The notes under the pieces are model-generated. The model was not told the DNA's origin. It ran no database searches and saw only the letters and a program-made list of their open reading frames with translations. A stretch of 64,000 nt of DNA from an uncultured Spirochaetota bacterium (GTDB lineage Bacteria; Spirochaetota; Spirochaetia; SZUA-6; Fen-1364), in the NCBI GenBank assembly GCA_963820525.1, contig CAWGAA010000003.1:480001-544000 (forward strand), read 5' to 3'. The position numbers and the translations under genes are program-made. Positions 2,626 through 49,857 of the stretch are shown here, in pieces. Numbering within the stretch: the first letter of the stretch is position 1; each line of letters begins with the position of its first letter.

Positions 2626-2805
2626 GCGCTTTCAGCGCAGACGCCGGGCGTTGTTCTTGATCGGGGCCGCTCTTCAGGCGTGCGGCACTCCTATGCGGCA
2701 GTCCGATGCCAATCCGACCACTGAAAACGTAGAGCTGGAGGGCACACGGCCGGAAGCCGCGTGTCGAAACCCTCCTCTCAATCCAGTCAATACGGTGGGA
2801 GATAC

Positions 2806-2868
2806 TTGACGAATTGGTGCACTGGGGATACATTGTATCTGATACCCCACCGGGGTGGGGTATCAGAT
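2806..2868 (+). promoter_or_regulatory. Sigma70-type promoter plus 32-bp palindromic CsoR/RcnR-like operator
   Basis: TTGACG (2806-2811), N17, TACATT (2829-2834), followed by ATCTGATACCCCACC-GG-GGTGGGGTATCAGAT (2837-2868, perfect 15-bp arms). Confidence 0.75.
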
Positions 2869-2891
2869 CATTTCACCGAGGGGCACTACCG

Positions 2892-3347
2892 ATGATGGGT
2901 CCCGCTTTTGTTCCTGCCCTGCGCTTCCGCTGGCTCACTCCCGTGTTCGACCCGTTCATGGCAATCGCTCTTCCCGACCTGCGGATCAAACGCGATCTGG
3001 CCGAAGCCCTGCAGCCGGCTGACTCGCGCAGCATCCTCGACTTGCCCCTCCTGGAAATTAAGAGAGTACTGAGACCGGGCGGCACGTTTTACACCGCCGA
3101 CTTCGATCGAGCGAGAAACCCCATTCTCCGGCTGGTTTTCAAGGCTGTGCGACTTCTGGACGGCCGAAGGAACACACGAACGAACGCGAAAGGCCTTCTT
3201 CCGAAACTGATGGAAGAGGCGGGATTCACGAGCGTTGGAGAGGCTGCCCGCTACGCAACGATGCTTGGCGAGGTTTCGACCTTCGAGGCGAAAAAGGCGC
3301 TCCCAATCGATCGATCGGGACACCTCGACACAAAGGAGGATAGGTGA
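2892..3347 (+). pseudogene. Class I SAM methyltransferase (UbiE-like) with in-frame internal deletion
   Basis: VPALRFRWLTPVFD N-terminus and EIKRVLRPGG/ADF motifs present, but ILDL joins directly to PLLEIKRVL, so the GxGxG SAM loop and following strands are missing. Confidence 0.7.
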
Positions 3348-3438
3348 TTCGGTCCTATTATTCGGCTCCCCTCGTCTTGACTGGTGTACGATGAAAATGA
3401 GGTGATGTCCGCAGCTATTGCGGGAATCGGTTTTTCAA

Positions 3439-33295: not shown

Positions 33296-36200
33296 TCACG
33301 GCGTCGAAGGATTGCCCATGCGCACGACGATCCCGTGCTTGACCAGGCCGCGGTCGAGGGGGATCACGCCGTCTCGAGCCCGCCGGCCGTCGATTTCCAC
33401 CCAGGACACACCCCGCTCTACGCCTTCCGGGTTCTCGACCTGGATATCGTAGATCGCCTCACCGTGACGATAGCGCACATGGAAACCATTCCACCAGCCG
33501 GGGATGACAGGCTCCACGCGCATTCCGTTTCCGCGCACTTTCAAGCCCAGGATCTCTTCGACCCATGCCCGATACATCAATGCCGCCGAGCCCGTATACC
33601 AGGACCAGCCTCCAAGGCCGATCCGTCCGGCCAACCGGCACACATCCGCCGCCACCGCGTAGGGTTCCACCGTATAGCGCCGGACCGCCTGCTCGTCGCG
33701 CGCGAGCTCGATCGGGTTGAGCATTCGAAGGATTTTCGCCGCGCGGGTGCCATCCCCTCGACGCGCCATGGCCATGGCGAGCCACAGGGCAGCGTGAGTG
33801 TACTGGCCTCCATTCTCCCGCACCCCCGGGGGATAGGCCTGGATGTAGCCGGGCGCAGGCGCCGACCGGTCGAAAGGCGGCGCGAAAAGCAGCACCAATC
33901 CTTCGTCATCGCGAACGAGCTCCTTCCACGCGGATTCCAGAGCATGCTCCGCGCGGAGCCTTTCGGCGGCGCCCGAAAGCCACGCCCATGATTGCGGCAA
34001 GGAATCGATCCGCGCCTCGGTATTCCTCGAAGAGCCGAGAGGGGATCCGTCATCGAAGATCCCTCGAAGATACCATTCGCCGTCCCAGGCTGCCTGCTCG
34101 ATGCGCTGAATCAGCGCCCTCTTGTCCCGTTGGTAGGTCCGGCTTATATCGATTCGACCCAGCACCTCAGACAACTCGGACATCCCTTGAAGGACATCCA
34201 CCAGGAACCACGCCAACCAGACGCTCTCCCCCTTGCCTCCGCTGCCCACGAGGTTCATCCCATCGTTCCAGTCCCCCGCCCCCATCAGCGGCAGCCCATG
34301 GGGCCCGATCGTCAGCCCACGCGTGACGGCGCGCCGGCAGTGCTCGAACAGCGTGGAGCGTTCGAGGGCAACCTCCGGCGTGAAGAATAGTTCGTGCTGA
34401 TCCTCCCTGAGCTCGGGGCCGTCGAGGAAGGGCACTTCGGCACGCAGGATGTCTCCATCTCCCGTGATCCGCACGTAGTGAGCCACGACATAGGGCAGCC
34501 ACAAGAGGTCGTCCGAAATGCGCGTGCGGATGCCCGAGCCGCCCGGAGGGTGCCACCAGTGCTGGACGTCGCCTTCCCTGAACTGTCGGCTCGCCGCGAG
34601 CAGGATGTGCTCGCGCGCGAGATCGGCAGACGCATACACGAGCGCCAAGACATCCTGGAGCTGATCGCGGAAGCCGAAGGCGCCGCCGGACTGGTAGAAG
34701 GCGGTACGCCCCCAGATCCGGCAGCTCAGGTCCTGGTACAAAAGCCATCGGTTGATCAGGAAGTCCGCCGCGAGCTCGGGGGTGTGCACCTCGATGGTCC
34801 CCAAAAGCGCATCCCACCACGATTTTGTCCTCGCCAATGCGGCCTCGATCTTCGGGCGTTCCCGGAAGGCGAGAACCATCCCGCGGGCCCCCTCCAGCGA
34901 CTCGGCCTGACCCACCATGCTCGTGATCTCGGCCCCTGCACCGGGGGCGATTTCAAGCTTCACCTGAAGCGCCGCGCACGGGTCCAGTCCCGCCCCCGTC
35001 CTTCGGGAAAGCGCCGCCCGCTCCATCGCGACCGGGGCATCCAGCGTGCGGTTGCGTCCGAGAAAGAACGTGCGGTCGCCGCTGTAGGACTGGGCAGGCG
35101 GGTCGATGGCCGCGAAGGCGACCCGATTCGCATATTCGGGGTGGTAGCGATTGAAGGCCATCAGCGCCCCGATGTCGTCATCCCAGGCGGTCACGACGTG
35201 CATCTGTGAGGTCTCGGGGTGCTCGCCGAGCACCCATTCAACGTAATAAGTCACCGAGAGGGTGCGGGGCCGCCCGGAGTCGTTTTTCAACCGCAGCCTC
35301 TGCAGCTTGATCGGCCGTCCTCCTCTCTCATCCATTGGAACAAAGACGGTCAGCTCCTGATCGATCCCGTTGCTGTTGTGCTCGAAGACCGTGTACCCGG
35401 CTCCATGCCTCGCCCGATATGCGGTCTGCTCGCGAATCGGCGACGGGGTCGGGGTCCAAAAAAGACCCGTCTCCTCGTCCCGTATGTACAGCACCTCGGA
35501 GGCCGGGTCCATGACGGGGTCATTCGACCAGGGCGTCAGGCGATTGCGTTGGCTGTTGCCATACCATGTAAAGCCGGAGCCCGTTTCGCTCACCAGGGTC
35601 CCGAAGGTCGGGTTGGCGATGACGTTCACCCAGGGTGCCGGGGTGTGAGTGCCCGAGCCGAGATATATCGCGTATTCGCGGCCGTCCGGAGTAAAACCAC
35701 CCAGGCCGTTGAAATAGGGCAGCTCCAAAAAGGGCAGCGGAGATGAAGGCTCCTCGGGAGCGCGTTTCCTGGCGATGGGTTCCTGTTGGTCGGGAACTTC
35801 AGCGGGCACGCCCAACTGCTGGGGCAGCGGGCCACGGGCCGCTACAAGCACCACGCTCGCGGCAGCCATGAGGAGCGTCAGGTCTTCCGCGGGGATTTGC
35901 TCCGCGCTGCGCAGGAAGATCCCGCCCGGTCGATCCCTGCCCGTATACGTCGAGTGGGCCTGGATCAGGCCCTCGAGCCGTTCGTTGAGCGGCCGCTCAT
36001 AGGTACGTGTCTCCTCGTTGAGGATCACCAGGTCCGCCATCAACCCGTGCATTCTCCAATAGGCATGCCCCTGAAGCATCTGCCGAACCAGGCTGATGTC
36101 CCGCGCCTCGCTGATGGTGACCAGGGCGATCGGCAGGTCCCCCGAGATCCCATAGGGCCAGAGACCGGCCTGGCCCTTGCCATTTTCCTTGATGCGCTCG

Positions 36201-39200
36201 GCGGCTGACCGCAGGAGCGGATTCGGATACAGCAGGGCGCCGGCGAGCTGCTGGAAACGGCGAGCCTCGTCCGGCTGGATGCGCAGCACGCGCAGCTCAA
36301 ACTGGGCGGCTGCCCAGGCGAAATCCAGGGCACGATCGATGGAGTGGGGATTGCCGTACTTGTCCATCAGCCCCAGGACCTGCTCCCGCGTTTCGCCGGC
36401 GGCAAGGACAAGGGAAACCTCCACGCGCTGGCCGGGACTCAAGTTCAGGCGCCTCCGCAGGCTGAGGATGGGATCCAGGACGTTCCCCTGTGTGTTGCCC
36501 ATCTCCCGCATGCCTCCCACGGGATTGGCGAGGGTCCGTCCCCGGCCGATGAACCGGCGGCGGTCCGTCTCGAATTGCAGGGCCTCCTCCCCGCCGTTTT
36601 CGAGCGTCAGGCGATGCGCGACATAGATGGGCGGAGCGTCTTCCCCTCGAGGCCGCCGGAATGCCAGAAGCGCCTGCTTGAGAGGCACCGCCTCGGTTTG
36701 GATGAAAAGCTTGTTGAATGCCGGATGCTGCCGGTCGGCAGCATGCGGCGTCATCGCCAGCTCGATATAGCTTGTGAGATCGAGGCGGCGGGTGCGAACG
36801 GAGCGATTGATCAGAGTGACCCGCCGGATTTCCAGGTCATCTTCGGGGGAGACGACGAGCTCCGTTCGGGTTTGAATCCCGCTATCGGTGCGCCGGTACA
36901 CGGCCCGATCGAGAGCGAAGCTGGCTGAATATCCCTCAACCTCTCCGCCGCAGGGCTGATAGGCTGTGGACCACAATCCATCGGTGTCGACGTCATGGAT
37001 GTAGCAGAAGGTTCCCCATGAATCCCGAGTCCGGTCCGATCTCCAGCGCGTTATCTCGTGATTGCCCCACTGGCTGTATCCCCCGCCGGCGTTCGTAACC
37101 ATCACGCCGTAGCGGCCGTTGCTGAGAAGCTGCGTTTTCGGCGTGTCGGTATGCGGAGTGTCGAACGTGCTCACCGAGGGTGCGACCCCTCCGACGCTTT
37201 CCGTCGTGAGCGCGCGCTCACGCGTCGAGATGTGATACAAGGGAGGCTGGACCGGGACGCGTTCATGGAGCAAAGGCTCAACGGCCCGCACACGCGCGTC
37301 GGCGTGGAACCGGCGCCTGACTGGGCCGTCATGGAGGAAATTGGAGAGCGACAGGAGACTCATCCCTTGGTGATGCGCCATGTAGGCCTGGACGACCACT
37401 CCCCGCTCGCCCTTCCGCGCTGTTTGGCGGCTGAAATCAATCGCCTCGTAGTATCCGTAATCGCCGAGCAGACCCAAGCGGACCAGCCGTTTCAGGTTCC
37501 GCACGGTCTTGAGCGGTGCAATGGTGACCGCCAGCAGGGTGGCATAGGGCGCGACAACCACCTTTTCCTCCAGACCGCGTTTCAAAGCCAGCTCGGGAAC
37601 GCCAAAAGCCCTGTACTGGTAGGTCTTTGTGAGGTCCAGATCTCCAAAAGCCGACTCCGATATTCCCCACGGCACTCGATGCCGGTGACCGTAGGCCATC
37701 TGGATATCCAGGGCTTCCCGCGCCGCCTTATCGAGAAGCGTGTTCCCGCGAGAGCGTTGGAAAATCAGCGGCATCAGATACTCGAACATCGTCCCGGTCC
37801 AGCTGAGAAGAACCCGGCGCCGGCCCACAGCCGAGTACGGGCGGCTCATTGAGAACCAGTGATCGAAGGGGACATCCCCCCTGGCGATGGCGATGAAGCT
37901 TCCCAGCCGCGCCTCTGCGGCCAGGAGGTCGTAGTAGGCACCATCCAGGCGGTCTTCGGAAACGTTGAAACCGATGCAGAAAAGCCGCCGCTCGGGATCA
38001 TACAGGAAGCGCATGTTGATCGCGTCGGATAACGCACGGCAGTCCCGAATGAGACGTTCGGCCGCGCCGAGGATTTCACCGGCCAGCCAGCGCGACTTGG
38101 AGAACTCCTCCAGCAGACGGTCAAGCCACGCGAGGAGAGGAGCGGCGGCCGCGGGAGCCGCCTCCCGGATCCCCTGAAGCACCGCAATGCAGCCGATGCG
38201 CCCGTTTGCCAGGTCTGCGAGCGAAGGCGCCCGGGAGAGATCCCGGCGGATGGCGTCCACGGCCGCTGGACCGAGCGGCGCGACCTCCTCTTCCGTTTTC
38301 TCGGCGAGGATTTCCATCCAGGCGAGATAGCGATCCGCTATATTCAGCCAGGCCGATACCTGCCCTTCCACCTGTCGGGACCAATAGACGGCTTCAGCTT
38401 CACCGTGGGGGGATTTTTGCGCTGCATCGGCGATGCTCTTCACCGTCTGCGCAGACCGCCGCAACAGGCGGAGGCAATCCGTGAGGCGGGCCGGCGGGGC
38501 CTCCCATGTGCTCGCGAGGGCAATTCCTTTCCGGCCCTCGACCTTGTGAAGGATTTCCGCGGTATCCCGCAGACCTGAAAAAGCGCGCCCATCGAGGACC
38601 GGCCCCTGGAGCAGCTCCTCCAGCCCATGTTCCAGGACCCACAGGGCCCCCAGCAGGTTTCCGCTGTCAACGGCGGAGACGTAGCGCGGCTCCAGGGGGG
38701 TCAGGGATCGAACATCGTACCAATTCAGCAGATGGCCCTGGAAGCGTTCCAACCTGCCGATCGTCTCCATGCTCCGTATCAGCTTCTCGACAAGCTGATC
38801 CGCCGTGATATAGCCGAAATCGGACGCGGCCAAGGCGCTCACCATCCACAGCCCGATGTTGGTTGGACTGGTGCGCATTGCCAGCTGGTTCTGCGGAGAG
38901 ACCTGGTAGTTATCGGGGGGCAGCCAGGAGGTCTCGGCGCCGACAAAATCCGCGAAGTACCGCCAGGTTCGGCGCGCAACCTGCCTGAGGAAGCGAACAG
39001 CCGTTTCGGGCAACCGGACGCGACGCTGCCTGGCCCGCGGCTTCAGGTTCAGGAGCCGACCGACCAGAGGAGAGAGGAACCACAGAGAAAGCCATGGGAC
39101 GGCGAACGCCAGGCTGGATGGCATCCAGCGCATCACCGCCCATGCCATAATCACGCTGAAGACGCTCACCAGTCCCATCGACACGCCATAAATGGGAAAC

Positions 39201-42200
39201 CGGTCAGGGGCAGCCCCGGTCAGCACCTGAGCCGAAGTCCACTGGAGCATTCTCCGATGGGAGACGTAGCGGCGATAAACGGCCAGAAGAATTGCATCCA
39301 GGGCCAGCGCGGTCTGGTGCGGAAGCAATGCGGCGTCCACGACCGCCCGAAGCACGTCGTGCGCGACCTTCCAGATCGAGAAGCCCGAGAGCCCCCGGCG
39401 AGTCGTCACCATGGTGAAACGCTGCACCATGGGCTGGAAAAGGAGCTGCACGGTGACCACAAGCGTCGAGATCCAGCCGATTTGGGGGGACGTCAGCCAG
39501 GAAGCCAGGAGCAAGCCCAGACTGGCCGCGGGCACCAGGCTGCGGCGCAAGTTGTCGAGAATCTTCCAGCGGTTGAACCGGGAAAGCGGATTCGGCTCAG
39601 GCCGTCCCCCCCGTCCGGGAACCCGCGACGATATCCACTGCGCGATTTGCCAATCGCCCCGAATCCAACGATGCTGCCGTTTTGTATACCCCAGGTAGTT
39701 GCGGGGAAACTCGTCATAGAGCTCGATATCGCTGGCCAGGCCCACGCGCACGTGGGCTCCTTCTATCAGATCGTGGCTCAGCAGGCGCCCGTCAGGGAAC
39801 CTTCCGGAAAGCACGCGACTGAAAGCGCGCACATCGTAGATGCCCTTGCCGTAATACGAGCCTTCTCCGGTCAGGTCCTGCTGGACGTCCGAGACGGCCC
39901 TGGTGTACGGATCGATTCCAACGGCGTCCGCGAAGAGCCGGCTGAAGAAGGAGGCGCTCGTGCTCGGCAGCGAAGGGCTCACGCGCGGTTGGATGACGGC
40001 GTAGGTGCCGGCGAGAACTCTTCCCGCGGCGTCGAAGCGCGGCCGGTTGAGAGGGTGCGCCAGGGTCTCGATCAGGCGGCGGGCGGCGCCAAGCGGCAGC
40101 TGGGTGTCGCTGTCGAGCGTGATGACGAATCTCACATTGGACAGATCATCCTGATTGCCGACGTATACCAGACGCCCTGCTCCTTCGGGCCGCGTTCCCT
40201 CGATCAGCCGGTTCAGCTCTTCGAGCTTTCCGCGTTTGCGCTCCCAACCGATGAACTTCCGCTCCGATTCGCTCCAGGTGCGATCGCGATGAAAGAGCAG
40301 GAAGCGCTCTCCTCCATGGCGACGGTTGAGGGCTTCGAGGCTTTCGATCGCGGCGCCGAGCAGTTGCGCGTCATCCTCACGATGCGCCCGATCCGCGTCC
40401 GTGTAGTCCGTGAAGAGGCTGAAGAGCAGATTGCTTTCCTTGTTGGCCAGGTAGCGGACCTCCAGCTTCTCGGCCTCTTCCCGGATCGTCTCGACGTCAC
40501 TCAGCAGAACGGGCACGACGATCAGCGTTCGGAATGCATCGGGTATTCCGAAGGCTTTGAAATCCATTTTGGCAAGGGGGCGGGGCGGCAGGAGCCGTGT
40601 CGCGAGATAGTTCAAGACCTCGATCGCGAGTTGACTGGCGGGAATCAGCAGCAGGAGCGCTATCAAGAGCCGAATCCCGGGCGCGAGTCCCCCAAGACCA
40701 AGCACTACGATCGGGACGACGAAGACGGCGGAAAAGAAACCGAGCGCCGTAAAGTACACAAGGGAATGATGGCGGTAGACCCAATGGAGGAGTCTGAAAT
40801 GGAGCCGCTCGCGGCAGTGCAGACTCTCGGCCAGCTCGCGCCTGCCCTCGTCGATCAGAAAACTTCCGACGTGGGTTCGCCGCTCATCCTCCGTCGGTCC
40901 GGCATGAGCGCGCGCTGCCAGCGCGATGGCCCCTTCTGCCACCTTGTCCTCCGCCCGACCGGAGCGGCGCGCAAGCTCTTCTACCGCCCGGCGATAGCGA
41001 TCGCGCGTGCCGAAATCCATTGAAGAATACACGCCGGACGGATCCGTTCGAAGCAGCAGTTCCACATGGCTCTGATTCTCGAAAATCTGCCTCCAATCCA
41101 GCAGCGCCAACTGGCGCAGGCTGGTGACGGCATGAGAGACGGAGATCTGATCCTTGGTTCTGCGGTTTTGCTCGCGCATGTTGAGCTCGCTCAGGGATTG
41201 GCGGAACGTGCGCTCCAGCCAGCTCTGGACCAGCACCAGCACGGCTTCTTCGTCGTAGAGATGATCGACCAGTTGGGTCACGAAATGGGGACTCGGACCC
41301 GGTTGGGCAAGGACAAGCTCGGACAGGATCAAGAAGAGATGGCTGGAGCCTCGCCGATTGGCCGAAATCAGCCGGTTCGCCCAGAAGTCGGCCATCTCCC
41401 GCTCGCGCAGCTCGGTCAAGGCGCCGACGGCGACATTCTGGATTTTCTCGATCAACGCAATGCGCAGCATCTGAGGGACAGCCCAAAGCTCGCCAATCGT
41501 CAGCGGGCTGACGGATTGGTACGCGCCGATGAAGGCCTGGATGTTTTCCCGATCCAGGCGAAACTCAACGTCGGAGACAAGCTCCCACGCCAAATCGTAG
41601 ATGCGCGGAAGCCCCCCAAAAGCTCCGCTGGAGAGTACCGGCATTTGGCGGTAATAGTGCCGAGGCAGGTTCGCTATCGCGTCGCGGGCGTTGCTCTCGA
41701 CAACGTACTCGTTGTCGAGGATCCACTCCGCCGTTGGAGGTGCTCCCTGTTCCAGACGGCTCGCCTCGGAGAGGTCCTCGCACGCGCGATGGATCCATTG
41801 ACGGGCCTCTTCGAGCCGGAGAAGAAGCGGCGCGCTCCGCTTGGGCTCCTGGTCGATACGGTGCTCGAAGGCCAGGCGCTGGGCATTCTCCCGGAGCAGC
41901 GCCTGCGTGGGGGGCACCACGGGACCCCGCGCGGCTCGCGGTAAACCCTCGTGCTTCGGATGAAGGGCGAAGACCGGCGGAGGGATGGGGCCGCTTTCTC
42001 GAAGCGCCGCCACGGCGAAATGCAGCCTCCCGACCGGCGCCTGTAGGATCACGACGGCCTCATTGGGCATCAGCCGGCGGGCGTGATCCTCAAGCAGCTC
42101 TTGCGCGACACCGTATTTCGATCGCCGTATCCACACGCACCCGACACAGATCCCGACCAATCCGCCTGCCAGGCCAGGGATCATGGGAGAAAGGCTCCCG

Positions 42201-42439
42201 ATCAGCGTCGGCCATTGCAGGGGGACGGATATGATGCCGGCGAGAACCCCGAGCAGAGCTCCGCCCATGAGAGCCCCGACAGCGCGGCGCATGGGAAAGC
42301 GGTCCCGGGTGAATACGCCCCCGCCGGCGGTCTTTCGCAGCAGGGCGACGCGGCGGAAGCCGCGCCTTCGCAGTACCGTGAGCGCGCTTCGGGCCTCCTC
42401 CTCATTCGCGTAGTAGCCGGCAAGAATGCCTACCGCCAT
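33296..42439 (-). CDS. ndvB: Cyclic beta-1,2-glucan synthase (Cgs/NdvB/ChvB type: GT84 + glucoamylase-like + GH94)
   Basis: EWILDN, GWERKRGKLEE, ITLDSDT, LSHDLIEG, RWIRGDWQ, GTMFEYLMP, QSGGAFGFRDQLQD, GDWNDGMN, RENGGQYTH. Confidence 0.92.
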   Translation of the reverse strand: MAVGILAGYYANEEEARSALTVLRRRGFRRVALLRKTAGGGVFTRDRFPMRRAVGALMGGALLGVLAGIISVPLQWPTLIGSLSPMIPGLAGGLVGICVGCVWIRRSKYGVAQELLEDHARRLMPNEAVVILQAPVGRLHFAVAALRESGPIPPPVFALHPKHEGLPRAARGPVVPPTQALLRENAQRLAFEHRIDQEPKRSAPLLLRLEEARQWIHRACEDLSEASRLEQGAPPTAEWILDNEYVVESNARDAIANLPRHYYRQMPVLSSGAFGGLPRIYDLAWELVSDVEFRLDRENIQAFIGAYQSVSPLTIGELWAVPQMLRIALIEKIQNVAVGALTELREREMADFWANRLISANRRGSSHLFLILSELVLAQPGPSPHFVTQLVDHLYDEEAVLVLVQSWLERTFRQSLSELNMREQNRRTKDQISVSHAVTSLRQLALLDWRQIFENQSHVELLLRTDPSGVYSSMDFGTRDRYRRAVEELARRSGRAEDKVAEGAIALAARAHAGPTEDERRTHVGSFLIDEGRRELAESLHCRERLHFRLLHWVYRHHSLVYFTALGFFSAVFVVPIVVLGLGGLAPGIRLLIALLLLIPASQLAIEVLNYLATRLLPPRPLAKMDFKAFGIPDAFRTLIVVPVLLSDVETIREEAEKLEVRYLANKESNLLFSLFTDYTDADRAHREDDAQLLGAAIESLEALNRRHGGERFLLFHRDRTWSESERKFIGWERKRGKLEELNRLIEGTRPEGAGRLVYVGNQDDLSNVRFVITLDSDTQLPLGAARRLIETLAHPLNRPRFDAAGRVLAGTYAVIQPRVSPSLPSTSASFFSRLFADAVGIDPYTRAVSDVQQDLTGEGSYYGKGIYDVRAFSRVLSGRFPDGRLLSHDLIEGAHVRVGLASDIELYDEFPRNYLGYTKRQHRWIRGDWQIAQWISSRVPGRGGRPEPNPLSRFNRWKILDNLRRSLVPAASLGLLLASWLTSPQIGWISTLVVTVQLLFQPMVQRFTMVTTRRGLSGFSIWKVAHDVLRAVVDAALLPHQTALALDAILLAVYRRYVSHRRMLQWTSAQVLTGAAPDRFPIYGVSMGLVSVFSVIMAWAVMRWMPSSLAFAVPWLSLWFLSPLVGRLLNLKPRARQRRVRLPETAVRFLRQVARRTWRYFADFVGAETSWLPPDNYQVSPQNQLAMRTSPTNIGLWMVSALAASDFGYITADQLVEKLIRSMETIGRLERFQGHLLNWYDVRSLTPLEPRYVSAVDSGNLLGALWVLEHGLEELLQGPVLDGRAFSGLRDTAEILHKVEGRKGIALASTWEAPPARLTDCLRLLRRSAQTVKSIADAAQKSPHGEAEAVYWSRQVEGQVSAWLNIADRYLAWMEILAEKTEEEVAPLGPAAVDAIRRDLSRAPSLADLANGRIGCIAVLQGIREAAPAAAAPLLAWLDRLLEEFSKSRWLAGEILGAAERLIRDCRALSDAINMRFLYDPERRLFCIGFNVSEDRLDGAYYDLLAAEARLGSFIAIARGDVPFDHWFSMSRPYSAVGRRRVLLSWTGTMFEYLMPLIFQRSRGNTLLDKAAREALDIQMAYGHRHRVPWGISESAFGDLDLTKTYQYRAFGVPELALKRGLEEKVVVAPYATLLAVTIAPLKTVRNLKRLVRLGLLGDYGYYEAIDFSRQTARKGERGVVVQAYMAHHQGMSLLSLSNFLHDGPVRRRFHADARVRAVEPLLHERVPVQPPLYHISTRERALTTESVGGVAPSVSTFDTPHTDTPKTQLLSNGRYGVMVTNAGGGYSQWGNHEITRWRSDRTRDSWGTFCYIHDVDTDGLWSTAYQPCGGEVEGYSASFALDRAVYRRTDSGIQTRTELVVSPEDDLEIRRVTLINRSVRTRRLDLTSYIELAMTPHAADRQHPAFNKLFIQTEAVPLKQALLAFRRPRGEDAPPIYVAHRLTLENGGEEALQFETDRRRFIGRGRTLANPVGGMREMGNTQGNVLDPILSLRRRLNLSPGQRVEVSLVLAAGETREQVLGLMDKYGNPHSIDRALDFAWAAAQFELRVLRIQPDEARRFQQLAGALLYPNPLLRSAAERIKENGKGQAGLWPYGISGDLPIALVTISEARDISLVRQMLQGHAYWRMHGLMADLVILNEETRTYERPLNERLEGLIQAHSTYTGRDRPGGIFLRSAEQIPAEDLTLLMAAASVVLVAARGPLPQQLGVPAEVPDQQEPIARKRAPEEPSSPLPFLELPYFNGLGGFTPDGREYAIYLGSGTHTPAPWVNVIANPTFGTLVSETGSGFTWYGNSQRNRLTPWSNDPVMDPASEVLYIRDEETGLFWTPTPSPIREQTAYRARHGAGYTVFEHNSNGIDQELTVFVPMDERGGRPIKLQRLRLKNDSGRPRTLSVTYYVEWVLGEHPETSQMHVVTAWDDDIGALMAFNRYHPEYANRVAFAAIDPPAQSYSGDRTFFLGRNRTLDAPVAMERAALSRRTGAGLDPCAALQVKLEIAPGAGAEITSMVGQAESLEGARGMVLAFRERPKIEAALARTKSWWDALLGTIEVHTPELAADFLINRWLLYQDLSCRIWGRTAFYQSGGAFGFRDQLQDVLALVYASADLAREHILLAASRQFREGDVQHWWHPPGGSGIRTRISDDLLWLPYVVAHYVRITGDGDILRAEVPFLDGPELREDQHELFFTPEVALERSTLFEHCRRAVTRGLTIGPHGLPLMGAGDWNDGMNLVGSGGKGESVWLAWFLVDVLQGMSELSEVLGRIDISRTYQRDKRALIQRIEQAAWDGEWYLRGIFDDGSPLGSSRNTEARIDSLPQSWAWLSGAAERLRAEHALESAWKELVRDDEGLVLLFAPPFDRSAPAPGYIQAYPPGVRENGGQYTHAALWLAMAMARRGDGTRAAKILRMLNPIELARDEQAVRRYTVEPYAVAADVCRLAGRIGLGGWSWYTGSAALMYRAWVEEILGLKVRGNGMRVEPVIPGWWNGFHVRYRHGEAIYDIQVENPEGVERGVSWVEIDGRRARDGVIPLDRGLVKHGIVVRMGNPSTP

Positions 42440-42599
42440 ACGACGAGGACCGCCGCGAAGGACGCACGAGAGCTCAGCACGTTGTTCTCTCCTTTCGCGA
42501 AGGTTCGATTGTACGCGAATAGCTCATCAACGGATATGGCGTGCTCCCTTTCGGCGCGGAACCGATTCCCTCCCGCACGCTGAGAGCCGCAGGAACGGC

Positions 42600-43106
42600 T
42601 CAGGTGAGTTTCAATTCCACTTTCTGGCCGAATGGAAGCGCGCACAGTCGCGCCAAGGCGTCGGAGAACTCGGGCAGAATGAAGCTATTCGCCATGCGTG
42701 AGGAGCTGCCGATATTGCCGCAGCATGCGGAGGCGGAACCATGCACAAGCTTGCCGTCGTTGCCGAGCTCTTTATCGAAGGCGGTGACGAAATCCGAGCG
42801 TATTCCCGCAGAATCCACGGAGTACGGCGCCGTTCCAAAGGTGACGACGATGAGACCGGATACCATGCAGTCGGTGATGCCTCCGAATCTATTCGCCAGG
42901 TCGGAGGTCTGCCCCATGCGTGCCGATATCTGTCCGGGTGTCTCTCCGCGCACCATTGCGAGCACGTATCCAATATCGGCGTTGCGTAATCGGGAGAGAT
43001 CGGTTACCGATTTGTTATCTGAAATCAGATCATCGATCTGGGGCAGCGATAGAAAGCGGGAGAATATGCGTCGTATCCTGCGGCGATCCAGGAAATTCCG
43101 AATCAT
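42600..43106 (-). CDS. Stand-alone degenerate class III nucleotidyl cyclase-like protein
   Basis: GGITD...VTFG, HG..A.CGNIGS..R and ARL match the cyclase fold, but the metal Asp residues are missing; strong GGAGG RBS. Confidence 0.6.
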   Translation of the reverse strand: MIRNFLDRRRIRRIFSRFLSLPQIDDLISDNKSVTDLSRLRNADIGYVLAMVRGETPGQISARMGQTSDLANRFGGITDCMVSGLIVVTFGTAPYSVDSAGIRSDFVTAFDKELGNDGKLVHGSASACCGNIGSSSRMANSFILPEFSDALARLCALPFGQKVELKLT

Positions 43107-43218
43107 TCCTTACCTCCCGGGGACACGCGCGAAAGGGCGCTTCGCCGCCCCGAGTGAAAAGCCCGACTTTCTCTGGAATTTCCTGCGGCGACAAGGCTCT
43201 GCCGCCCAAACCCGGCTC

Positions 43219-43485
43219 CTATTGATTGGCTTTTATGATTCTTTCGAGTTTGTCATGCAGATCGCTATACCCCTTATGGAGATTGGCATCTTCTGTGCTC
43301 TTGACTTCTCCTTCGAGGCTTTCCAGGAGCGTATTCATTTTTTCCAGGGGCAATTTCACAAGAAAGGCATTGCCATACATCACCGTAACATTCAGTTTTC
43401 GTTCCAACTCTTTATCAAGAGCTTGTATGTTCAGGATCAGCTCTCTTTCGCTTCGCGTCAACTCGATCGGGATGAGCTTTTCCAT
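43219..43485 (-). CDS. 88-aa hypothetical protein
   Basis: AT-richer ORF with AAGG RBS, co-oriented between mgsA and the cyclase-like gene. Confidence 0.6.
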   Translation of the reverse strand: MEKLIPIELTRSERELILNIQALDKELERKLNVTVMYGNAFLVKLPLEKMNTLLESLEGEVKSTEDANLHKGYSDLHDKLERIIKANQ

Positions 43486-43533
43486 ACCTTAGATAATATC
43501 CGTTTCTGCGAAATCCATCAAGCGGGGCTTTCC

Positions 43534-44016
43534 TCAAGCGTTTCCTGGCTCTTCGCCTCTGGCAATCCTGCGAGCGCGGTATTCCTGGTAATCGGGAACA
43601 AGACGATCATATTCTCCATCCATGAGGGGAGAGGAGATCATGAAATCGGCGGAAGCCCTGTTGCAGGCAATCGGAATATTCCACACCACCGCCATTCGCA
43701 GGAGTGCCTTGACATCGGGATCGTGGGGCTGCGGCTCGAGCGGATCCCAAAAAAAGATCAGAAAATCGATCTCGTCATCGACGATCCTGGCGCCGATTTG
43801 CTGATCGCCTCCCAAGGGTCCGCTTTGAAGCTTCGTGATTTTAAAGCCCAGTTCGCGTTCCAGAATCACTCCCGTGGTGCCTGTCGCATACACCTTGTGA
43901 TGTGCCAGGAGATCGCGGTTGAATTTGGCCCATTCGACGAGGTCCGCTTTTTTATTGTCGTGGGCTACCAGTGCGATTTTTTTGTCATGCTCCATGGCGA
44001 TTTTATTGTAATTCAT
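43534..44016 (-). CDS. mgsA: Methylglyoxal synthase
   Basis: [39 protein letters not shown]; start ATG 44016. Confidence 0.96.
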
Positions 44017-44237
44017 ATGATGCCTTTCAGTCCTTTTTCCGGTGTGGCGAAACGATTCCTCTCCGGGTGATCGCACGGCCCTCCCCAAAAGGCGATGATC
44101 CGCGACAGAGTCTGAGAGGCTGCGCGCGCCGAGGTGAAGTTTAGTGCAGAGGCGGCCCCCCGACAAGGGCGAAGCCCGCTCATCACGCCGCGGATCGGCA
44201 CAACGAGCGCCCTTTTTGCCGCGATCCGGCGATGCCC

Positions 44238-44266
44238 TTGACACGTCGATGAAAATAGGCTACTTT
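44238..44266 (+). promoter_or_regulatory. Sigma70-type promoter of the recombinase operon
   Basis: TTGACA (44238-44243), N17, TACTTT (44261-44266), followed by an AT-rich tract. Confidence 0.6.
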
Positions 44267-44307
44267 AATGTTAATTAATGGATTATAGAATCGACGGGGA
44301 GAAGATC

Positions 44308-45273
44308 ATGGAGAAGAAGATAGAGATCGCGGAGGCGAGGCGAAAGCTTAACCCGGCCCTTGTCTATGCGTCCCGATTGACCAAGACGGGGAAGCCCGCG
44401 GTCGAAAACATGCTGCGGATCGCGGCCAGGTGGATCGCGGAAGCCGAGGGTCTTCCGACATCGGCCATCGAGGCCGGTCTCTGGCAGCGGATGACGCTCG
44501 AGCACATGAAGGCGATCCGGGCAAGGGCACTCGAGACGGGCTACTCTCCGGCGTCCGTCAACCTCATGCTCTCGGCCATCCGGGGTACCGTGCGGGCCGC
44601 ATGGCGCATGGGGCTGATGAGGGCGGAGGAGCTCATACGCATAACAGAGGTGCCGAACGTCAAGGCCAAGAGCCAGCCATCGGGAAGGAAGATCACCGCG
44701 CGCGAGCTGTCCGCACTCATAGAGAGAATCGACACGGTCACTGCATCGGGAAAACGCGACGCGGCGGTGATCAGCCTGGCCTATTGCGCGGGGATGAGGC
44801 GGCGAGAGATCGCTTCGCTCGGCATGGAGAATATCCGCGAAACGGCAAAAGCGATCGAGGTCCGCGTACCGTCGCGGAGCGGGAAAAAGGCCCGAACATC
44901 GTATCTCGACAATGGCGGGGCCGATGCGCTGTGGGATTACCTGGAGTCACGGGGGAGGAATCCGGGAGCGCTCTTCGTAACGTCACGGAAGAGCGGAGCG
45001 CTCCTTGACGAGGCACTCGGGGAACACGCCGTCTATGAAGTCATCAAACGATGCGGAGAGCGGGCCGGCGTTGAGCTCACGCCGCATGACTTTCGAAGGA
45101 CCTTCGTCTCCCATCTCCTCGACCAGGGAGCGGATCTCACGGTGGTGGCGGGAATGGCCGGACACAGCAGCGTACAGACGACGGCACGCTATGACAGCCG
45201 GGGTGAGGGAGTGAAGAAGGCGGCGGCGAGGCTTCCGCAATTGCCCTATCGCAGGAAGCGGAGGAGCTCGTGA
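44308..45273 (+). CDS. Tyrosine recombinase, catalytic residues intact
   Basis: SPASVN core-binding region; GMRRREI (R), GKK (K), HDFRR (HxxR), GHSSVQTTARY (H, Y). Confidence 0.92.
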   Translation: MEKKIEIAEARRKLNPALVYASRLTKTGKPAVENMLRIAARWIAEAEGLPTSAIEAGLWQRMTLEHMKAIRARALETGYSPASVNLMLSAIRGTVRAAWRMGLMRAEELIRITEVPNVKAKSQPSGRKITARELSALIERIDTVTASGKRDAAVISLAYCAGMRRREIASLGMENIRETAKAIEVRVPSRSGKKARTSYLDNGGADALWDYLESRGRNPGALFVTSRKSGALLDEALGEHAVYEVIKRCGERAGVELTPHDFRRTFVSHLLDQGADLTVVAGMAGHSSVQTTARYDSRGEGVKKAAARLPQLPYRRKRRSS

Positions 45274-45515
45274 GGGCCGCGGAGAGCAGTCTGAAAGCGC
45301 ACACGCCGTGCATGGGCACTCATGTTTTCGACTGGGGGGAAAAATCGCTGGAGAAGGGGCCGCCCGAGGGGCTGAACTGCGCGTGCGGGATGTTCGAGTT
45401 CCACTACACGACCTGTGAATGCGGGTGCGGCCGGAGAATCATGTCGTTGCGTTTCAACAAGAGAGGATCCCGACATCCTCTGCCGCTCGAAGTCGAAGCC
45501 GCGGTCCTGAGATAG
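45270..45515 (+). CDS. 81-aa Cys/His-rich putative zinc-binding protein
   Basis: GTG overlaps the recombinase stop (GTGA); CxxxH, CAC, CECGC. Confidence 0.55.
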   Translation: MRAAESSLKAHTPCMGTHVFDWGEKSLEKGPPEGLNCACGMFEFHYTTCECGCGRRIMSLRFNKRGSRHPLPLEVEAAVLR

Positions 45516-45530
45516 GAAGGGAGCAGATGC

Positions 45531-46454
45531 ATGGGTGAAATATCGAAACGATCCGGTAGGCCTCGGCCAGGCAGCTCGAGCCCCGTCCTGGTTTATCTGG
45601 CGGGCCTAGAGGAGAATGGCCGGCCTCTGATGCGGCGGGCTCTCAATGGCGTTGCGCGGCGTCTTGGTTATAGAAGCGCGCGAGCTGCCCCATGGACCGA
45701 GCTGCGGGCCGAGCATGTCGCGGCGCTGCGGACGTGGCTCTCTGATTCTTTCAAACCGGCGAGGGTAAACCGCTGCCTGTCGGCGATCAAGGGAACCATG
45801 AAGATAGCCTGGCAGCTCGGGCAGATCGATGGAGGGAGGCTTGTTGAAATTCTCAAGCTGAAAGCGGTGAGGAGAGGTTCTCATCCATACGGGAGATCCC
45901 TATCCGCTCATGAGATTCATGCCCTCATGGAGGCCTGCGCCGACGGGACATTCACGGGCAAGCGGGACCTGGCAGTCATCACTCTGGCGTACTGCGGAGG
46001 TCTCAGGAGGGCGGAGATGGCCGCGCTGAACGTCGACGATGTGAAAGCCGAGGCGGAGGCCTTCGTGATTCGGGTTCTCAGCAGAGGGCAACGAGAGTTT
46101 CTGGTTTCCATCGACGACGGCGGTGCCGAAGCCATTCGAGACTTCCTGACCGGGCGCGGGGAAGCGCCTGGCCCTCTGTTTTGCAGGGACAGGGAGAGCA
46201 AACCGTGTGAGCGCCTCACGGCCGATGGGCTTTTTGCGGTGCTCAGGGAGCGGGCACAGGCGGCAGGAGTAGAGGGCATGAGCCCCCACGACATGCGGCG
46301 CACGTTCGTCTCTGACAAGCTCGCAGCCAGCGTCGATGTTCTCACCGTTTCGGCCCTCACGGGACGCGGCGATCCGAATCATGGCGGCGGCGCCCCACGG
46401 AAGGCCGTAAAGAATCCGTCTCTTCCACTGGGGGCATGCCACGCCGCGCCATGA
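45531..46454 (+). CDS. Tyrosine recombinase paralog lacking the catalytic Tyr (dead or regulatory, or pseudogene)
   Basis: GLRRAE and HDMRR kept; GH changed to GR; 7-aa TTARYDS segment absent; GGGAG RBS; no stop or frameshift. Confidence 0.8.
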   Translation: MGEISKRSGRPRPGSSSPVLVYLAGLEENGRPLMRRALNGVARRLGYRSARAAPWTELRAEHVAALRTWLSDSFKPARVNRCLSAIKGTMKIAWQLGQIDGGRLVEILKLKAVRRGSHPYGRSLSAHEIHALMEACADGTFTGKRDLAVITLAYCGGLRRAEMAALNVDDVKAEAEAFVIRVLSRGQREFLVSIDDGGAEAIRDFLTGRGEAPGPLFCRDRESKPCERLTADGLFAVLRERAQAAGVEGMSPHDMRRTFVSDKLAASVDVLTVSALTGRGDPNHGGGAPRKAVKNPSLPLGACHAAP

Positions 46455-46478
46455 GCTTGCCGGCCAGGGCAAAGGAGC

Positions 46479-46778
46479 ATGCTGAAAATGGATGCGATCG
46501 AATTGGGCAAAAAAAGAGCGGAAGAGTTCATAACGGAGCAAATGCGGAGCCTCGACCGTGACAGTGGACTGTACTCTCTTCTTTGGTGGACGCCGGATCC
46601 GCTCGACCCGGATCGTGAAAGTACGCATGCGCAGATGACAGTGCCTCTGCGATTATACAAGGGAAACAGCTGGAGACTTGTCAAGTTTTTCAAATCGGAT
46701 CTTGACGACTGCGCTAAATCTCCGGAATTGCTTCAGAAATACGAAGAAGAAATAAGACAAGCTCTCATGGATCTCTAG
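46479..46778 (+). CDS. 99-aa hypothetical protein
   Basis: AAAGGAG RBS, AT-richer, 24 nt after the second recombinase. Confidence 0.65.
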   Translation: MLKMDAIELGKKRAEEFITEQMRSLDRDSGLYSLLWWTPDPLDPDRESTHAQMTVPLRLYKGNSWRLVKFFKSDLDDCAKSPELLQKYEEEIRQALMDL

Positions 46779-46794
46779 AAACGCTCACCGCCCC

Positions 46795-49700
46795 CTAGCG
46801 ATGCGAGAGCGGTATTTGAGCGAAGGCTTCGGGAGGCGCGGTCCCCAGGGAATCGGCAGCCACCGGCTGGAAGCGGGAAAGGATCTGGGCCTGGGATGGC
46901 TCGCCGCTCCAGGCCAGATCTACTATCCGCGTGGCGTTAGATCCCGGAAGCGCTCCACCCAACCGCCACTGTTCGGCGGCCTGCTTCACGTCACGAACCC
47001 TTCGAACCCCCGGGGACGGAAAGCCATCCTGACTCAACACCATGGCCGCGTAGCCCCACTGCGCGGGGGTGCCGCGTCCGGCGAAGAGTTTCTTCGGCAG
47101 GCTGATGACGACAATCCCCTTGGGAGCGTCCACCGTGGCTTTCGCCGGGCTTCCCGGCGCTTCCGAGGGCTTTCCCGATGCGTCCACCACGAACAGCTTC
47201 TGACTCCAGCCCTCCACCCAGACCGCGTAGTCCCAACCGTTCCCCTGCTCGAGGGCGGCATTGCGGCCTTCCAGGAGCATTCGCGACCCCGTGGCCTTGC
47301 CGGGGTCCGTATCGATGTAGATATCGAATGTCTGAATCGAGAGCCCGATCGCGGAGCCCCAGGGATTGTCGATGGGGGTCCGCATCGTGAAGGAGAAAAC
47401 AAGGTCGCGCTCCGTCTCGGCCGCCGTGAAACTCAGGATATCGAAGACGCCGGGCTTGAAGACGGGATCGAGGGGATACGTGTACGTGCCGGGACCGTTG
47501 TCGTCTCCCTGCGGATCCTCGACGGTCAAAAAAGGCTCGGCCTGGGCGGCAAGGGGCAGCACCACCCTCAGAGGACCGGACTCCGGCAGAAGCTGGGCAT
47601 CCCTTGTCCCCACGGAATAGGCGGCACGCGCGCGGACGGCGGAGCCCGGGGGAACCTCGCCTAAAAGATCGAGCGGCACCGCGCATTCCACGATCTTTCC
47701 GTCCACGGCCACGCTCTTCAGGTCCTTCAACCGCGCCCACTCCTGGTAGCGGCCCCGGCCGAATACGGAAAGCTGCCAGCTCCCCCCGGCTCCTGAAATC
47801 TCGATATACGCGGTGCTTCCGAAGCCAAGGACGGAAGAGTTCACCGTGAAAGGGCTCGAAGGCGCGCCGGGATCCCATTGCAGATAGACGCGCACCGCGC
47901 GCCCGGGAGCCGGGCTCAATGGCTCTTTCGCGTCGAGGCGGACGTACAGAAAGCTTCCATCGATTCCGAGATAAAGCGTCTGCAGAGCGTCGCCGCCGCG
48001 CGCCATCGCTCCACCGCGAAGCTCATAACGGGCCGCCTTGTCCCATTCGCCCACGGAAGCCTCCCCGTCTATGACGGGAGTGACGGCGGAATCGAGCGGC
48101 TTGGCCGCGGGGGCAGGCGAAAGCGGAATAATGGGCGCGCGGAGGAAATCCGGCGGCGCCCGCCCCAGAGCGGTGTAGACATTCGCCAAAAGCCACCTGA
48201 AAGAATCGTCGAAGTACGAATCGTTTCCCGAATCCTGGTCGTCACCGAACCACCAGAACCAGTCCGAGCCTTCGGCAAGGTACATGAAGTCGAGCGCGCG
48301 CTGGAGGCTTTTGGGGTCTGCTTTTTTTCTCTTGTACAGGTCGTATTCCGCCAGGTCCTTGCGCACCCGAGCCAGGTAGTTCCACGCCGTATTCTCCTCC
48401 GGCTCACCGATCCAGGTGGAGTAGTCCGGCGAAAACCATGCCCCCCACCAGAGGCTGTCCAGTCGTCGCTGCTCTGGGTACATCAAGAGATACTCGGAAA
48501 CCGTGATCGTGCGGACCGTCTCGCTTTCGGCCAGCCTGCGATACAAAGCGTCGAGGAACTCCTTGCCGTCGTTATCGTAGTTCTCCCAGGCGTTCTCTCC
48601 GTCCAGGATAATGCTCACAAGATGCGGCCCCTCTTTGCCGCCTGCGGAAAGCCTGGCACGGATATTCTCGAGCCTTCTCATGAAGTCGGCGGCCGCCTCT
48701 TCTCCCGGCGTGCCTGAGTATTCGAAGGCGATCAGGTCCGACAGCCTCTGGTCCCGGAATACCATGGCCACCGATGAGCCGTCACGGGAGTGAACGACGT
48801 ACGGACGGTAGAGGGCATCCGCCTCGTTCACGGTATCTGAAGCATCCCGGGTGAAGTCCCCGATGCCCAGCGATCTGGCGAGCACCTGCTCGCCGGAGGC
48901 CATCCAGTGGAAACCGGCATCGGCGACCATCTTCACGATCTCAGGGGCAACGGCGCCCTCAGCCGGCCAGAGGCCTGACGGCTTTCGTGAAAACCTGGCC
49001 TGGTACTCCGTGACGCTCCTGGCAAGCTGCCCCACCGCGTCGTTGGCGAATGAGTACCAATCCGGGAGGGCCGTGGTCGGGTCTCCCTTGGCTGCGAGTG
49101 AAGTGCTGTACAGAAGCGGCAGGATGGGATGCGCGTAGGGGGTGGTGATGACCTCGATCTGCCCCCTGTCCTGGAGCCTCTTGTGGATGGACACGATCTT
49201 CCTGATTACCTTCAACCCCTCAGCGAAGACGATGGCCTTGTCCGCCTCGGCGAAGCCCCTCCCCTTCTCCACCAGCGCGGCGAGGGGCTGTGCGGCCAGA
49301 GCATCGGGATCGAACCAGGCCAGGTTGAACCATACCTGGAGGTCGCGAATATCCTCGGTGGAAAACGAGGCGCGGGCGGCATCGATGGATCCCGCGGCCC
49401 CCGCCTTTGCCAGAAGCTCCGCATAGCGGGGGAAGCGCGAGATGACGTGGGCATGGTTGGCGTCGAAGAACCGCTCGAGGATGAACCGCTTCTCCACGGG
49501 CGTAAGGCGGTCCGCACGCTTTTCAGCCAGCTCCTGGTAGCGATCCTTGGCGCCCGAGGCGAAGTCATCGAGCTGGCGCAGCAGCACGGGGGTCAGGTTG
49601 ATGGTGGCGTGCACGGCTGGATAGCGCTCCAGCGTGGCCGCCATGTCGTAGTAGTCCTTGGTGGCGTGCACGCGCACCCACGGCCTGCTGTAGACGCCGC

Positions 49701-49857
49701 TCGGATCCCGGCTGTAGTAGGGCTGGTGCTGGTGCCAGATCAGGTTGACGTAGAGGATGTCGCCGGTCCTGGCTGCCTCACGATCGTCCGCGATGAGCGA
49801 GGCCGCGGCAAAACAAAACGCCAGAGCGAGAAACGCCCGAAAGGGGGCGGAGCGCAC
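46795..49857 (-). CDS. Secreted GH57 amylopullulanase with C-terminal glucodextranase/DOMON-like domain
   Basis: WHQHQPYY, PWVRVH, GLWPAEG, ILDGENAWENY, AEGSDWFWW; DPQGDDNGPGTYTYP, NPWG; signal peptide. Confidence 0.92.
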   Translation of the reverse strand: MRSAPFRAFLALAFCFAAASLIADDREAARTGDILYVNLIWHQHQPYYSRDPSGVYSRPWVRVHATKDYYDMAATLERYPAVHATINLTPVLLRQLDDFASGAKDRYQELAEKRADRLTPVEKRFILERFFDANHAHVISRFPRYAELLAKAGAAGSIDAARASFSTEDIRDLQVWFNLAWFDPDALAAQPLAALVEKGRGFAEADKAIVFAEGLKVIRKIVSIHKRLQDRGQIEVITTPYAHPILPLLYSTSLAAKGDPTTALPDWYSFANDAVGQLARSVTEYQARFSRKPSGLWPAEGAVAPEIVKMVADAGFHWMASGEQVLARSLGIGDFTRDASDTVNEADALYRPYVVHSRDGSSVAMVFRDQRLSDLIAFEYSGTPGEEAAADFMRRLENIRARLSAGGKEGPHLVSIILDGENAWENYDNDGKEFLDALYRRLAESETVRTITVSEYLLMYPEQRRLDSLWWGAWFSPDYSTWIGEPEENTAWNYLARVRKDLAEYDLYKRKKADPKSLQRALDFMYLAEGSDWFWWFGDDQDSGNDSYFDDSFRWLLANVYTALGRAPPDFLRAPIIPLSPAPAAKPLDSAVTPVIDGEASVGEWDKAARYELRGGAMARGGDALQTLYLGIDGSFLYVRLDAKEPLSPAPGRAVRVYLQWDPGAPSSPFTVNSSVLGFGSTAYIEISGAGGSWQLSVFGRGRYQEWARLKDLKSVAVDGKIVECAVPLDLLGEVPPGSAVRARAAYSVGTRDAQLLPESGPLRVVLPLAAQAEPFLTVEDPQGDDNGPGTYTYPLDPVFKPGVFDILSFTAAETERDLVFSFTMRTPIDNPWGSAIGLSIQTFDIYIDTDPGKATGSRMLLEGRNAALEQGNGWDYAVWVEGWSQKLFVVDASGKPSEAPGSPAKATVDAPKGIVVISLPKKLFAGRGTPAQWGYAAMVLSQDGFPSPGVRRVRDVKQAAEQWRLGGALPGSNATRIVDLAWSGEPSQAQILSRFQPVAADSLGTAPPEAFAQIPLSHR

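Follow-up and report, generated by a model that had tools for sequence, protein, structure and literature searches.

The 64,000-nucleotide stretch of DNA analysed here (hereafter the window), taken from contig CAWGAA010000003.1 of an uncultured Spirochaetota bacterium, encodes a catalytically dead tyrosine-recombinase paralogue, Int2 (45531..46454, 307 aa), as the third gene in a string of four on the plus strand. Int2 is a single-origin, selected, catalytically disabled recombinase homologue that has lost the Lys-beta, His-II and Tyr residues of the active site and kept Arg-I, His-I and Arg-II. The other three genes encode an intact Xer-like tyrosine recombinase, Int1 (44278..45273, 331 aa), a small Cys/His-rich protein, S81 (45270..45515, 81 aa), and a small protein of a recombinase-linked family, S99 (46479..46778, 99 aa). 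A listing of open reading frames (ORFs) places all four on the strand and at the coordinates given by an earlier reading of the letters alone (the original prediction), and since each has homologues elsewhere they are more than chance ORFs. Neither the Int1 and Int2 pair nor S99 has a second copy in the 5.05-Mb genome. On balance, we favour the reading that Int2 is an exapted, non-catalytic DNA-binding protein with a recombinase fold, regulatory or architectural in role and made together with the active recombinase encoded upstream of it, and that the operon in the window is a mosaic.

Int2 has lost three of six catalytic residues but is held by selection

Int1 and Int2 are 36% identical (E 2e-57) and both match the tyrosine recombinase family PF00589, Int1 with 89.5 bits and Int2 with 62.9 bits (cut-off 27.1), the match of Int2 stopping at position 155 of the 172 in the profile. 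Smyshlyaev et al. 2021 (PMC8138268) give the RKHRH set plus Tyr as the conserved tyrosine-recombinase catalytic core. The corresponding columns were inspected in an alignment that combined Int2 and its 27 close relatives from the database with Int1 and 15 further intact sequences; the row for locus L030, a wrong-strand ORF, was left out of the counts, and the correct L030 ORF was used in the tree described below. Int1 has the complete set (R174, K204, H270, R273, H296 and Y305), as had been read from its sequence originally. In Int2 these six positions read R, R, H, R, R and a gap. The missing Tyr had been noticed before; the losses of Lys-beta and His-II are additional to it.

The same residues are missing from homologues of Int2 elsewhere. 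Lys-beta is a Lys in 0/28 members of the Int2 clade (Gln in 22, His in 3, Arg in 2 and Ser in 1) and in 14/16 intact relatives. His-II is a His in a single one of the 28 and in 16/16 intact relatives, while the Tyr column holds Tyr in 5/28 (otherwise Cys in 5, Arg in 4, His in 3, Asp in 2, Ser, Phe, Asn, and a gap in 6), compared with 16/16. The remaining three positions are kept almost without exception: Arg-I in 27/28, and His-I and Arg-II each in 28/28, all three being present in every one of the 16 intact relatives. With Lys-beta, His-II and Tyr lost, Int2 is no longer able to cleave DNA. Most residues found in the Tyr column have codons a single nucleotide away from one for Tyr, as relaxed selection on an ancestral Tyr would yield, and the tail of the protein is collinear with the intact family in many members of the clade. 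At the extreme C-terminus an (F/L)PY motif is found in most members of the clade and in the intact family. In Cre- and Xer-type enzymes this extreme C-terminal region touches the neighbouring subunit.

A protein search returned 28 Int2 clusters at 53-100% identity (E<=1e-87), followed by a sharp drop to 45% or less for all others. The clusters derive from Spirochaetia metagenome-assembled genomes and are named only "integrase" or "Spirochaetia bacterium". In a quick IQ-TREE run they form one branch (Shimodaira-Hasegawa-like approximate likelihood ratio test, SH-aLRT, 100), which splits into a group containing the window protein with its closest database relatives, P0002-P0004 (76-63% identity), and a group of 24 of the sister-genus type. 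The Int2 frame stays open through about 45% protein divergence across these 28 clusters. The ratio of nonsynonymous to synonymous substitution rates (dN/dS, NG86 method) is 0.14-0.28 among five Int2 orthologues (10 pairs), against 0.09-0.19 for the intact recombinase IntX introduced below. Among ten sister-genus sequences (45 non-independent pairs) it is 0.15 in the body of Int2 and 0.58 in the tail after the residues "ALSG", which is also rich in indels. On these selection data simple decay is rejected, in agreement with the original view of Int2 as a dead paralogue. Three outcomes had been named in advance as counting against that view, namely a Tyr kept by the Int2 homologues of all other genomes, an unconserved gene order and a dN/dS of about 1; none was found in full.

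Orthologues of Int2 occur in 5/25 genomes of the family, those in relatives (G007, G009, G015 and G019) having 57-59% identity. A family-wide genome search and a contig scan found no Int2-bearing relatives besides these four. An alignment-based metagenome scan yielded 15 Int2 loci; the scan with the single Int2 protein as query found no relative.

Int1 and its intact relatives

In the quick tree Int1 groups with an intact integrase of G015 (support 99), apart from the Int2 clade, and is therefore not a recent duplicate of Int2. Its start is probably the ATG at 44308, to judge from the GGGGAG that lies 5' of it. The best NCBIfam matches of both Int proteins are Xer-type models, at scores far under the cut-offs. 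Against the XerC and XerD equivalog models Int1 scores 101.0 (cut-off 335.15) and 95.9 (cut-off 329.6), and Int2 only 67.7 and 65.8. Scores also fall below the cut-offs of integron integrase models (for Int1, 45.9 versus 265 with TIGR02249 and 26.7 versus 435 with NF011946; for Int2, 21.6 versus 265) and of Fim-type invertase models (36.2 and 30.2 versus 222 and 221).

G021 and G015 each carry several copies of intact Int1/Int2-family members, which flank cargo. At one locus of G021 (L028, G021:C81, 7836-12087), two co-oriented integrases of the family bracket genes for a DNA methylase and a BsaWI-like restriction nuclease. A frameshift interrupts the second integrase close to its C-terminus, and the locus looks like a small restriction-modification island.

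The neighbourhood of Int2 in related genomes and metagenomes

In each of the four relative genomes with Int2, an intact PF00589 gene, IntX, lies upstream on the same strand; IntX is only about 22% identical to Int1. In 15 loci the DNA ahead of Int2 is visible for 1.2 kb or more, and in 12 of these Int2 is preceded by an intact recombinase of the same orientation (9/12 by distinct lineages; L088 is near-identical to G009, and L091 and L092 are near-identical to G007), in support of the originally proposed pairing of a dead paralogue with a live recombinase. The order of the four genes is not conserved: relatives carry IntX, not Int1, usually with an SPFH gene and an ankyrin gene before Int2. 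At its most complete the cluster reads IntX, SPFH/Band7, ankyrin, S81 and Int2 (L095 and L100). Eroded forms have lost S81 (G015 and G019) or retain only a remnant of the ankyrin gene (G009), and in G007, L089, L091 and L092 IntX is coupled directly to Int2 with overlapping stop and start codons. A 73-aa ORF between IntX and Int2 in G009 was considered as an S81 homologue and rejected, being the ankyrin-gene remnant in another frame.

The landmark shared by these loci is a giant gene on the minus strand of the window (33296..42439) that encodes a 3047-aa protein with Glycoamylase, GH94 supersandwich and GH94 catalytic domains (Pfam), which we take to resemble the cyclic beta-1,2-glucan synthases ("cgs"). 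The protein is 62-68% identical across the family. Int2 lies within 4 kb of this gene in 5/5 genomes and in L086, L088, L089, L091 and L092, the GH94 orthologue being the immediate neighbour in G007, G009, G015, G019 and five metagenome contigs. The GH94 gene is mostly divergent from IntX and co-directional with it in G015. Its adjacency to Int2 survives inversion, insertion and gene loss around it. The GH94 gene itself is present in 19/24 other genomes of the family, and a recombinase stands beside it only in the four that carry Int2; SPFH adjoins it in G005, G016 and G023. In G000 an IntX-like gene (68% identity) followed by SPFH is found on another contig.

Some further observations concern IntX and Int2 in individual lineages. 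IntX genes of both identity tiers are preceded, in 14/14 loci examined, by a near-identical motif of TTGAC, about 12 nt and then TATCTGTTAYATTAC, about 50 nt before the start (L026:9600-9650, L024:5990-6030, L046 at G000:C1:1155022-1155036, and 11 other loci). L100 has a second, inverted copy directed at its S99 gene, and the motif core occurs once in the entire G000 genome. The motif may be a shared promoter or operator, or a recombinase site. G007 has three IntX modules with different contents: IntX and Int2 beside the GH94 gene (C1:40845-42583), IntX, SPFH, ankyrin and S81 beside Hsp20/ClpP genes (C7:130613-133593), and IntX with S99 (C12:112427-113603). The impression is one of shuffling, between the copies, of whatever follows IntX. 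At L093, a 734-aa protein with N-terminal HTH_23/28/32 domains (453-2657) ends just before an Int2 orthologue (2692-3567) that is without its first 20 or so residues; judging by this arrangement, an insertion probably disrupted Int2 in that lineage.

The small proteins S81 and S99

The original prediction had described S81 as a translationally coupled, Cys-rich ORF of 81 aa, and this description stands. Its GTG start overlaps the TGA of Int1 by 4 nt, with GGAGGAG just 5', and nine homologues fetched at 46-57% identity share six invariant Cys residues in the motif H-x-P-C-x-G-x-H-V-F-x-W ... C-x-C-G-M-F-E ... C-x-C-G-C. The family comprises 21 clusters, and a search of 1.84 billion proteins gave 14 representatives at E<=1e-3, none named in either case. 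S81 has no match in Pfam, NCBIfam, PHROG or PADLOC, and an ESM Atlas search was uninformative (best score 0.84). A complex prediction for Int2 with S81 scored 0.00 and gave no verdict. In the window and in six metagenome loci, 2-15 nt separate S81 from Int2 downstream of it. S81 also occurs without Int2, closing IntX-SPFH-(ankyrin) strings in G021, G017 and G007:C7, and in G019 it is a solitary gene 40 kb away from Int2.

In the window the two genes share one frame, S81 being split from Int2 at 45513-45530 by a single TAG (45513-45515) and 15 nt. P0002, which is 76% identical to Int2, has a Gln at the point of the TAG, and its N-terminus matches the C-terminus of S81, which suggests a possible S81-Int2 fusion in the organism that encodes P0002. 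The sister genus does not have S81 and Int2 in a common frame.

The S99 family contains 54 clusters, all annotated as "hypothetical". It is present as a single copy in each of 6/25 genomes of the family, and in 7/7 loci (the six genomes and L100) it adjoins a tyrosine-recombinase gene. In G002, G006, G010 and G007:C12 the gene directly follows a second type of IntX. It precedes IntX in G021 and L100, and the window has it after Int2. The true start of S99 is probably the ATG at 46488, because a database protein 96% identical to it has 96 aa. An AlphaFold2 (AF2) model predicts an alpha-beta3-alpha arrangement (predicted local distance difference test, pLDDT, 82), and fold searches gave no clear relative (best Foldseek E 0.095, best VIA-align Z 5.2). 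S81 is thus a lineage-specific family and S99 a recombinase-linked one, and both are real. That they are fixed members of a four-gene module is not supported: S81 also occurs without Int2, and S99 mostly follows IntX types.

Search for recombination sites and mobility

The region around Int1 and Int2 lacks the marks of an integrative mobile element: no tRNA was detected between 30000 and 60000 of the window, no convincing direct or inverted repeats were found at the ends or flanks of the four genes, and the locus is syntenic with the GH94 gene. The earlier impression of a locus with no tRNA target and no terminal repeats was accurate. Nothing consistent emerged from searches for inverted and direct repeats in four orthologous loci, nor from searches for repeats on the flanks of the GH94 gene in G015 and the window. 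Because the GH57 and mgsA orthologues (see below) of relatives have unrelated surroundings, an empty site cannot be defined; the GH57 orthologues in G013, G014 and G031 have no recombinase gene adjoining them.

Logan contigs from two other studies, about 97.5% identical to the window, are colinear with it across Int1, S81, Int2, S99 and the GH57 gene (43729-48274 and 44365-48274), and every indel in them is in frame or intergenic. No inversion or excision joints at 42-47 kb were seen in the Logan contigs of 4 runs, although contigs would miss rare variants; one run, X3, gives no cover at about 41.8-43.3 kb. Int1 alone may have arrived by mobility.

Proposed role of Int2

The four-gene string of the window is a lineage-specific mosaic, since the neighbourhoods of relatives have IntX forms, the family of Int1 is mobile and the S81-Int2 pair is ancestral. 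Int2 itself is a Xer-like tyrosine recombinase that has lost half of its six catalytic residues (the Lys that acts as general acid, His-II and the nucleophilic Tyr), while purifying selection has held the rest of the protein in a family of wetland Spirochaetia. In the scheme that we propose, Int2 would grip DNA with the recombinase fold's two-domain clamp and with the Arg-His-Arg residues that it retains and that contact the phosphate. It is probably co-produced with the active recombinase encoded ahead of it, be this IntX, as in the sister genus, or Int1, as here. Int1, an intact integrase of a mobile family, now occupies the place where relatives have IntX, SPFH and ankyrin, abutting the ancestral S81-Int2 pair, and S99, a recombinase-linked small protein, comes after Int2. 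With MrpR of phage SPbeta as a precedent for such reuse, Int2 most likely binds DNA sequence-specifically and has a regulatory, architectural or accessory role at some target, for which the GH94 region is the best guess because the adjacency of Int2 and GH94 persists through several rearrangements.

Several points weigh against this proposal. The Arg-His-Arg triad is retained almost throughout and a live recombinase is constantly co-oriented, which fits a role in a recombination complex at least as well as that of a pure regulator. Five of the 28 clade members keep the Tyr, and some of these could in principle retain residual chemistry. That only 5/25 family genomes carry Int2 makes the protein dispensable. 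The AF2 model of Int2 had a mean pLDDT of 44 and was not used, so the integrity of its fold is argued from sequence. No binding site, operator or regulated target of Int2 was identified, and no conserved repeats were found. The context is also not uniform, as in L086 the GH94 gene is directly upstream of Int2 with no upstream recombinase, in L099 IntX is divergent from Int2, and in L093 a transposase-like gene truncates Int2 at its 5' end.

A tentative alternative, in line with the original prediction, is that the live and dead proteins form a heteromeric recombinase, in which Int2 binds one half-site and assembles with the co-expressed Int1 or IntX into an asymmetric synapse. Such a complex might exchange a single pair of strands, or Int2 might gate or block its partner, with S81 and S99 as accessory or directionality factors. 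The prevailing co-orientation with an intact recombinase, the translational coupling to IntX in G007, the Arg-I/His-I/Arg-II pocket kept in 27-28 of the 28 and the widespread C-terminal (F/L)PY motif all suit this explanation, as do the invariable position of S99 beside a recombinase gene and that of S81 directly upstream of Int2 in the window and six other loci. The partner, however, changes by lineage to a protein as distant as IntX is from Int1, L086 keeps Int2 with no recombinase upstream, and G000 has its IntX-like gene on another contig. The loss of Lys-beta speaks against a shared, Flp-like active site, both small proteins are found away from Int2, and no recombination sites, inversions or excision joints were detected in the searches described above. 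In a bolder form, which we consider unlikely, Int2 would be the dedicated non-catalytic subunit of an asymmetric two-protein recombinase with interchangeable partners (IntX or Int1), whose direction or timing would be set by a zinc-type S81 and by S99. If true, such a modular live/dead recombination system would have no described counterpart in bacteria, and it may explain the shuffled content downstream of IntX-type genes (SPFH-ankyrin-S81, S99 or Int2).

Int2 might instead be an old, inactive and functionless remnant at a hotspot where integrases accumulate beside the GH94 gene, its conservation a by-product. The cargo-flanking, multi-copy relatives in G021 and G015 (among them the frameshifted copy beside the restriction-modification pair), the erosion of cluster content through ankyrin remnants and loss of SPFH or S81, and the small number of family genomes that keep Int2 would all be expected of such debris. 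We nevertheless regard this as very unlikely: the body of Int2 has a dN/dS like that of the intact IntX, its frame is open throughout a divergent clade of single origin, and the truly decayed copy at L028 differs from it in being frameshifted. It also seems very unlikely that Int2 confers immunity by occupying the attachment site of its own family beside the GH94 gene, so blocking further integration or excision. Intact members of the family do act like island integrases, the DNA-contacting residues are kept without the chemistry, and Int2 holds a stable position beside one chromosomal landmark. Yet Int1, an intact member of that very family, lies right beside Int2, so the locus was evidently still open to integration; att-like repeats were not detected around it, and the idea is wholly inferential.

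Comparison with known systems

MrpR (YopR) of the Bacillus subtilis prophage SPbeta is described, in excerpts of the study, as a DNA-binding master repressor with a tyrosine-recombinase fold that has lost recombinase function (PMC10516654). It is the closest functional analogue of Int2, a recombinase relative that has lost its chemistry and binds DNA sequence-specifically. Int2 resembles it in one respect, as a protein of the recombinase family whose catalytic residues are lost and which is nonetheless conserved. MrpR is phage-encoded and works with a serine recombinase, whereas Int2 is chromosomal, vertically kept beside the GH94 gene, encoded next to an active tyrosine recombinase, and retains Arg-His-Arg. 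A profile of the Int2 clade matched 5 PDB sequences at E<=1e-5, including XerA, XerD and a chain labelled RaiA; MrpR was not listed among them. A related preprint concerns SroF.

The best relatives of the Int proteins in sequence and structure are XerC/XerD and the archaeal XerA (4a8e, E 6e-21). XerC and XerD are a two-paralogue arrangement in which one partner can stay catalytically silent. Both of them have the full catalytic set, whereas Int2 has no Tyr; no dif-like site was found at the Int locus, and the presence of Int2 in only 5/25 family genomes means that, unlike Xer, it is not a housekeeping protein. RIT elements consist of three adjacent recombinases, and the TnpA, TnpB and TnpC proteins of Tn554 are two catalytically complete recombinases and a small third protein. 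The window shares with these elements its adjacent, co-oriented tyrosine-recombinase paralogues and, with Tn554, the small additional protein. It differs in having two recombinases of which one is dead, no terminal repeats, and a syntenic, non-mobile locus. The original conclusion that the layout fits neither XerC/XerD nor RIT is therefore upheld, since Int2 lacks the Tyr and there are two PF00589 genes, not three.

Domesticated genes derived from Crypton elements are presented, in excerpts of the source, as tyrosine-recombinase genes recruited by eukaryotic hosts after the loss of transposition (PMC3212892). They are eukaryotic, unrelated to Int2 in sequence and set in another domain context. 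The tandem island integrases of G021 at L028 share the protein family of Int1 and Int2 and likewise form a co-oriented pair with a damaged second copy. That copy is a recent frameshifted pseudogene, while Int2 represents an old, open and selected clade. The literature search found no paper on a bacterial chromosomal clade of Tyr-less recombinases paired with an active one, which does not exclude that one exists.

Int2 is thus a new example of a pseudo-recombinase, a kind already known from MrpR. A tyrosine recombinase is usually taken to indicate mobile DNA or chromosome dimer resolution. Int2 is a clear bacterial chromosomal case in which recombinase sequence has been kept for hundreds of residues after the chemistry was lost, and its signature is unusually clean, with a nucleophile column that drifts among neighbours of the Tyr codon beside a strongly constrained body. 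It offers a testable model of how a recombinase fold can come to serve as a DNA-binding regulator or silent partner, and it cautions that not every match to PF00589 deserves the label "integrase". S81 and S99 are defined here as two new small-protein families tied to recombinase genes in wetland Spirochaetia.

Expression signals and flanking genes in the window

A candidate sigma-70-like promoter (TTGACA, 17 nt, TACTTT; 44238..44266, plus strand) is visible by eye ahead of Int1. A consensus scan did not call it and gave 1 other site against 0.6 expected, so the single promoter first proposed for the operon stands as a candidate only. Each gene does have a ribosome binding site or a coupled start, as had been proposed: besides the signals already given for Int1 (at 44308) and S81, Shine-Dalgarno-like sequences precede Int2 and S99. 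The operon ends where it was said to end, with 16 bp between the stop of S99 (46778) and that of a convergent gene (46795), here assigned to GH57. PADLOC has no match for Int1, S81, Int2 or S99, and Rfam none within 42000-47500.

The convergent GH57 gene (46795..49857, minus strand) encodes a protein of 1020 aa with PF03065 and PF09985 domains. On the other side, a methylglyoxal synthase-like gene, mgsA (43534..44016, minus strand, PF02142), is divergent from Int1. Between mgsA and the GH94 gene, minus-strand ORFs of 168 aa and 88 aa (42600-43485) belong to no Pfam family and have no homologues in the loci of relatives that were searched. The G+C content around these two ORFs dips to 0.49-0.56, compared with about 0.62 in the flanks.

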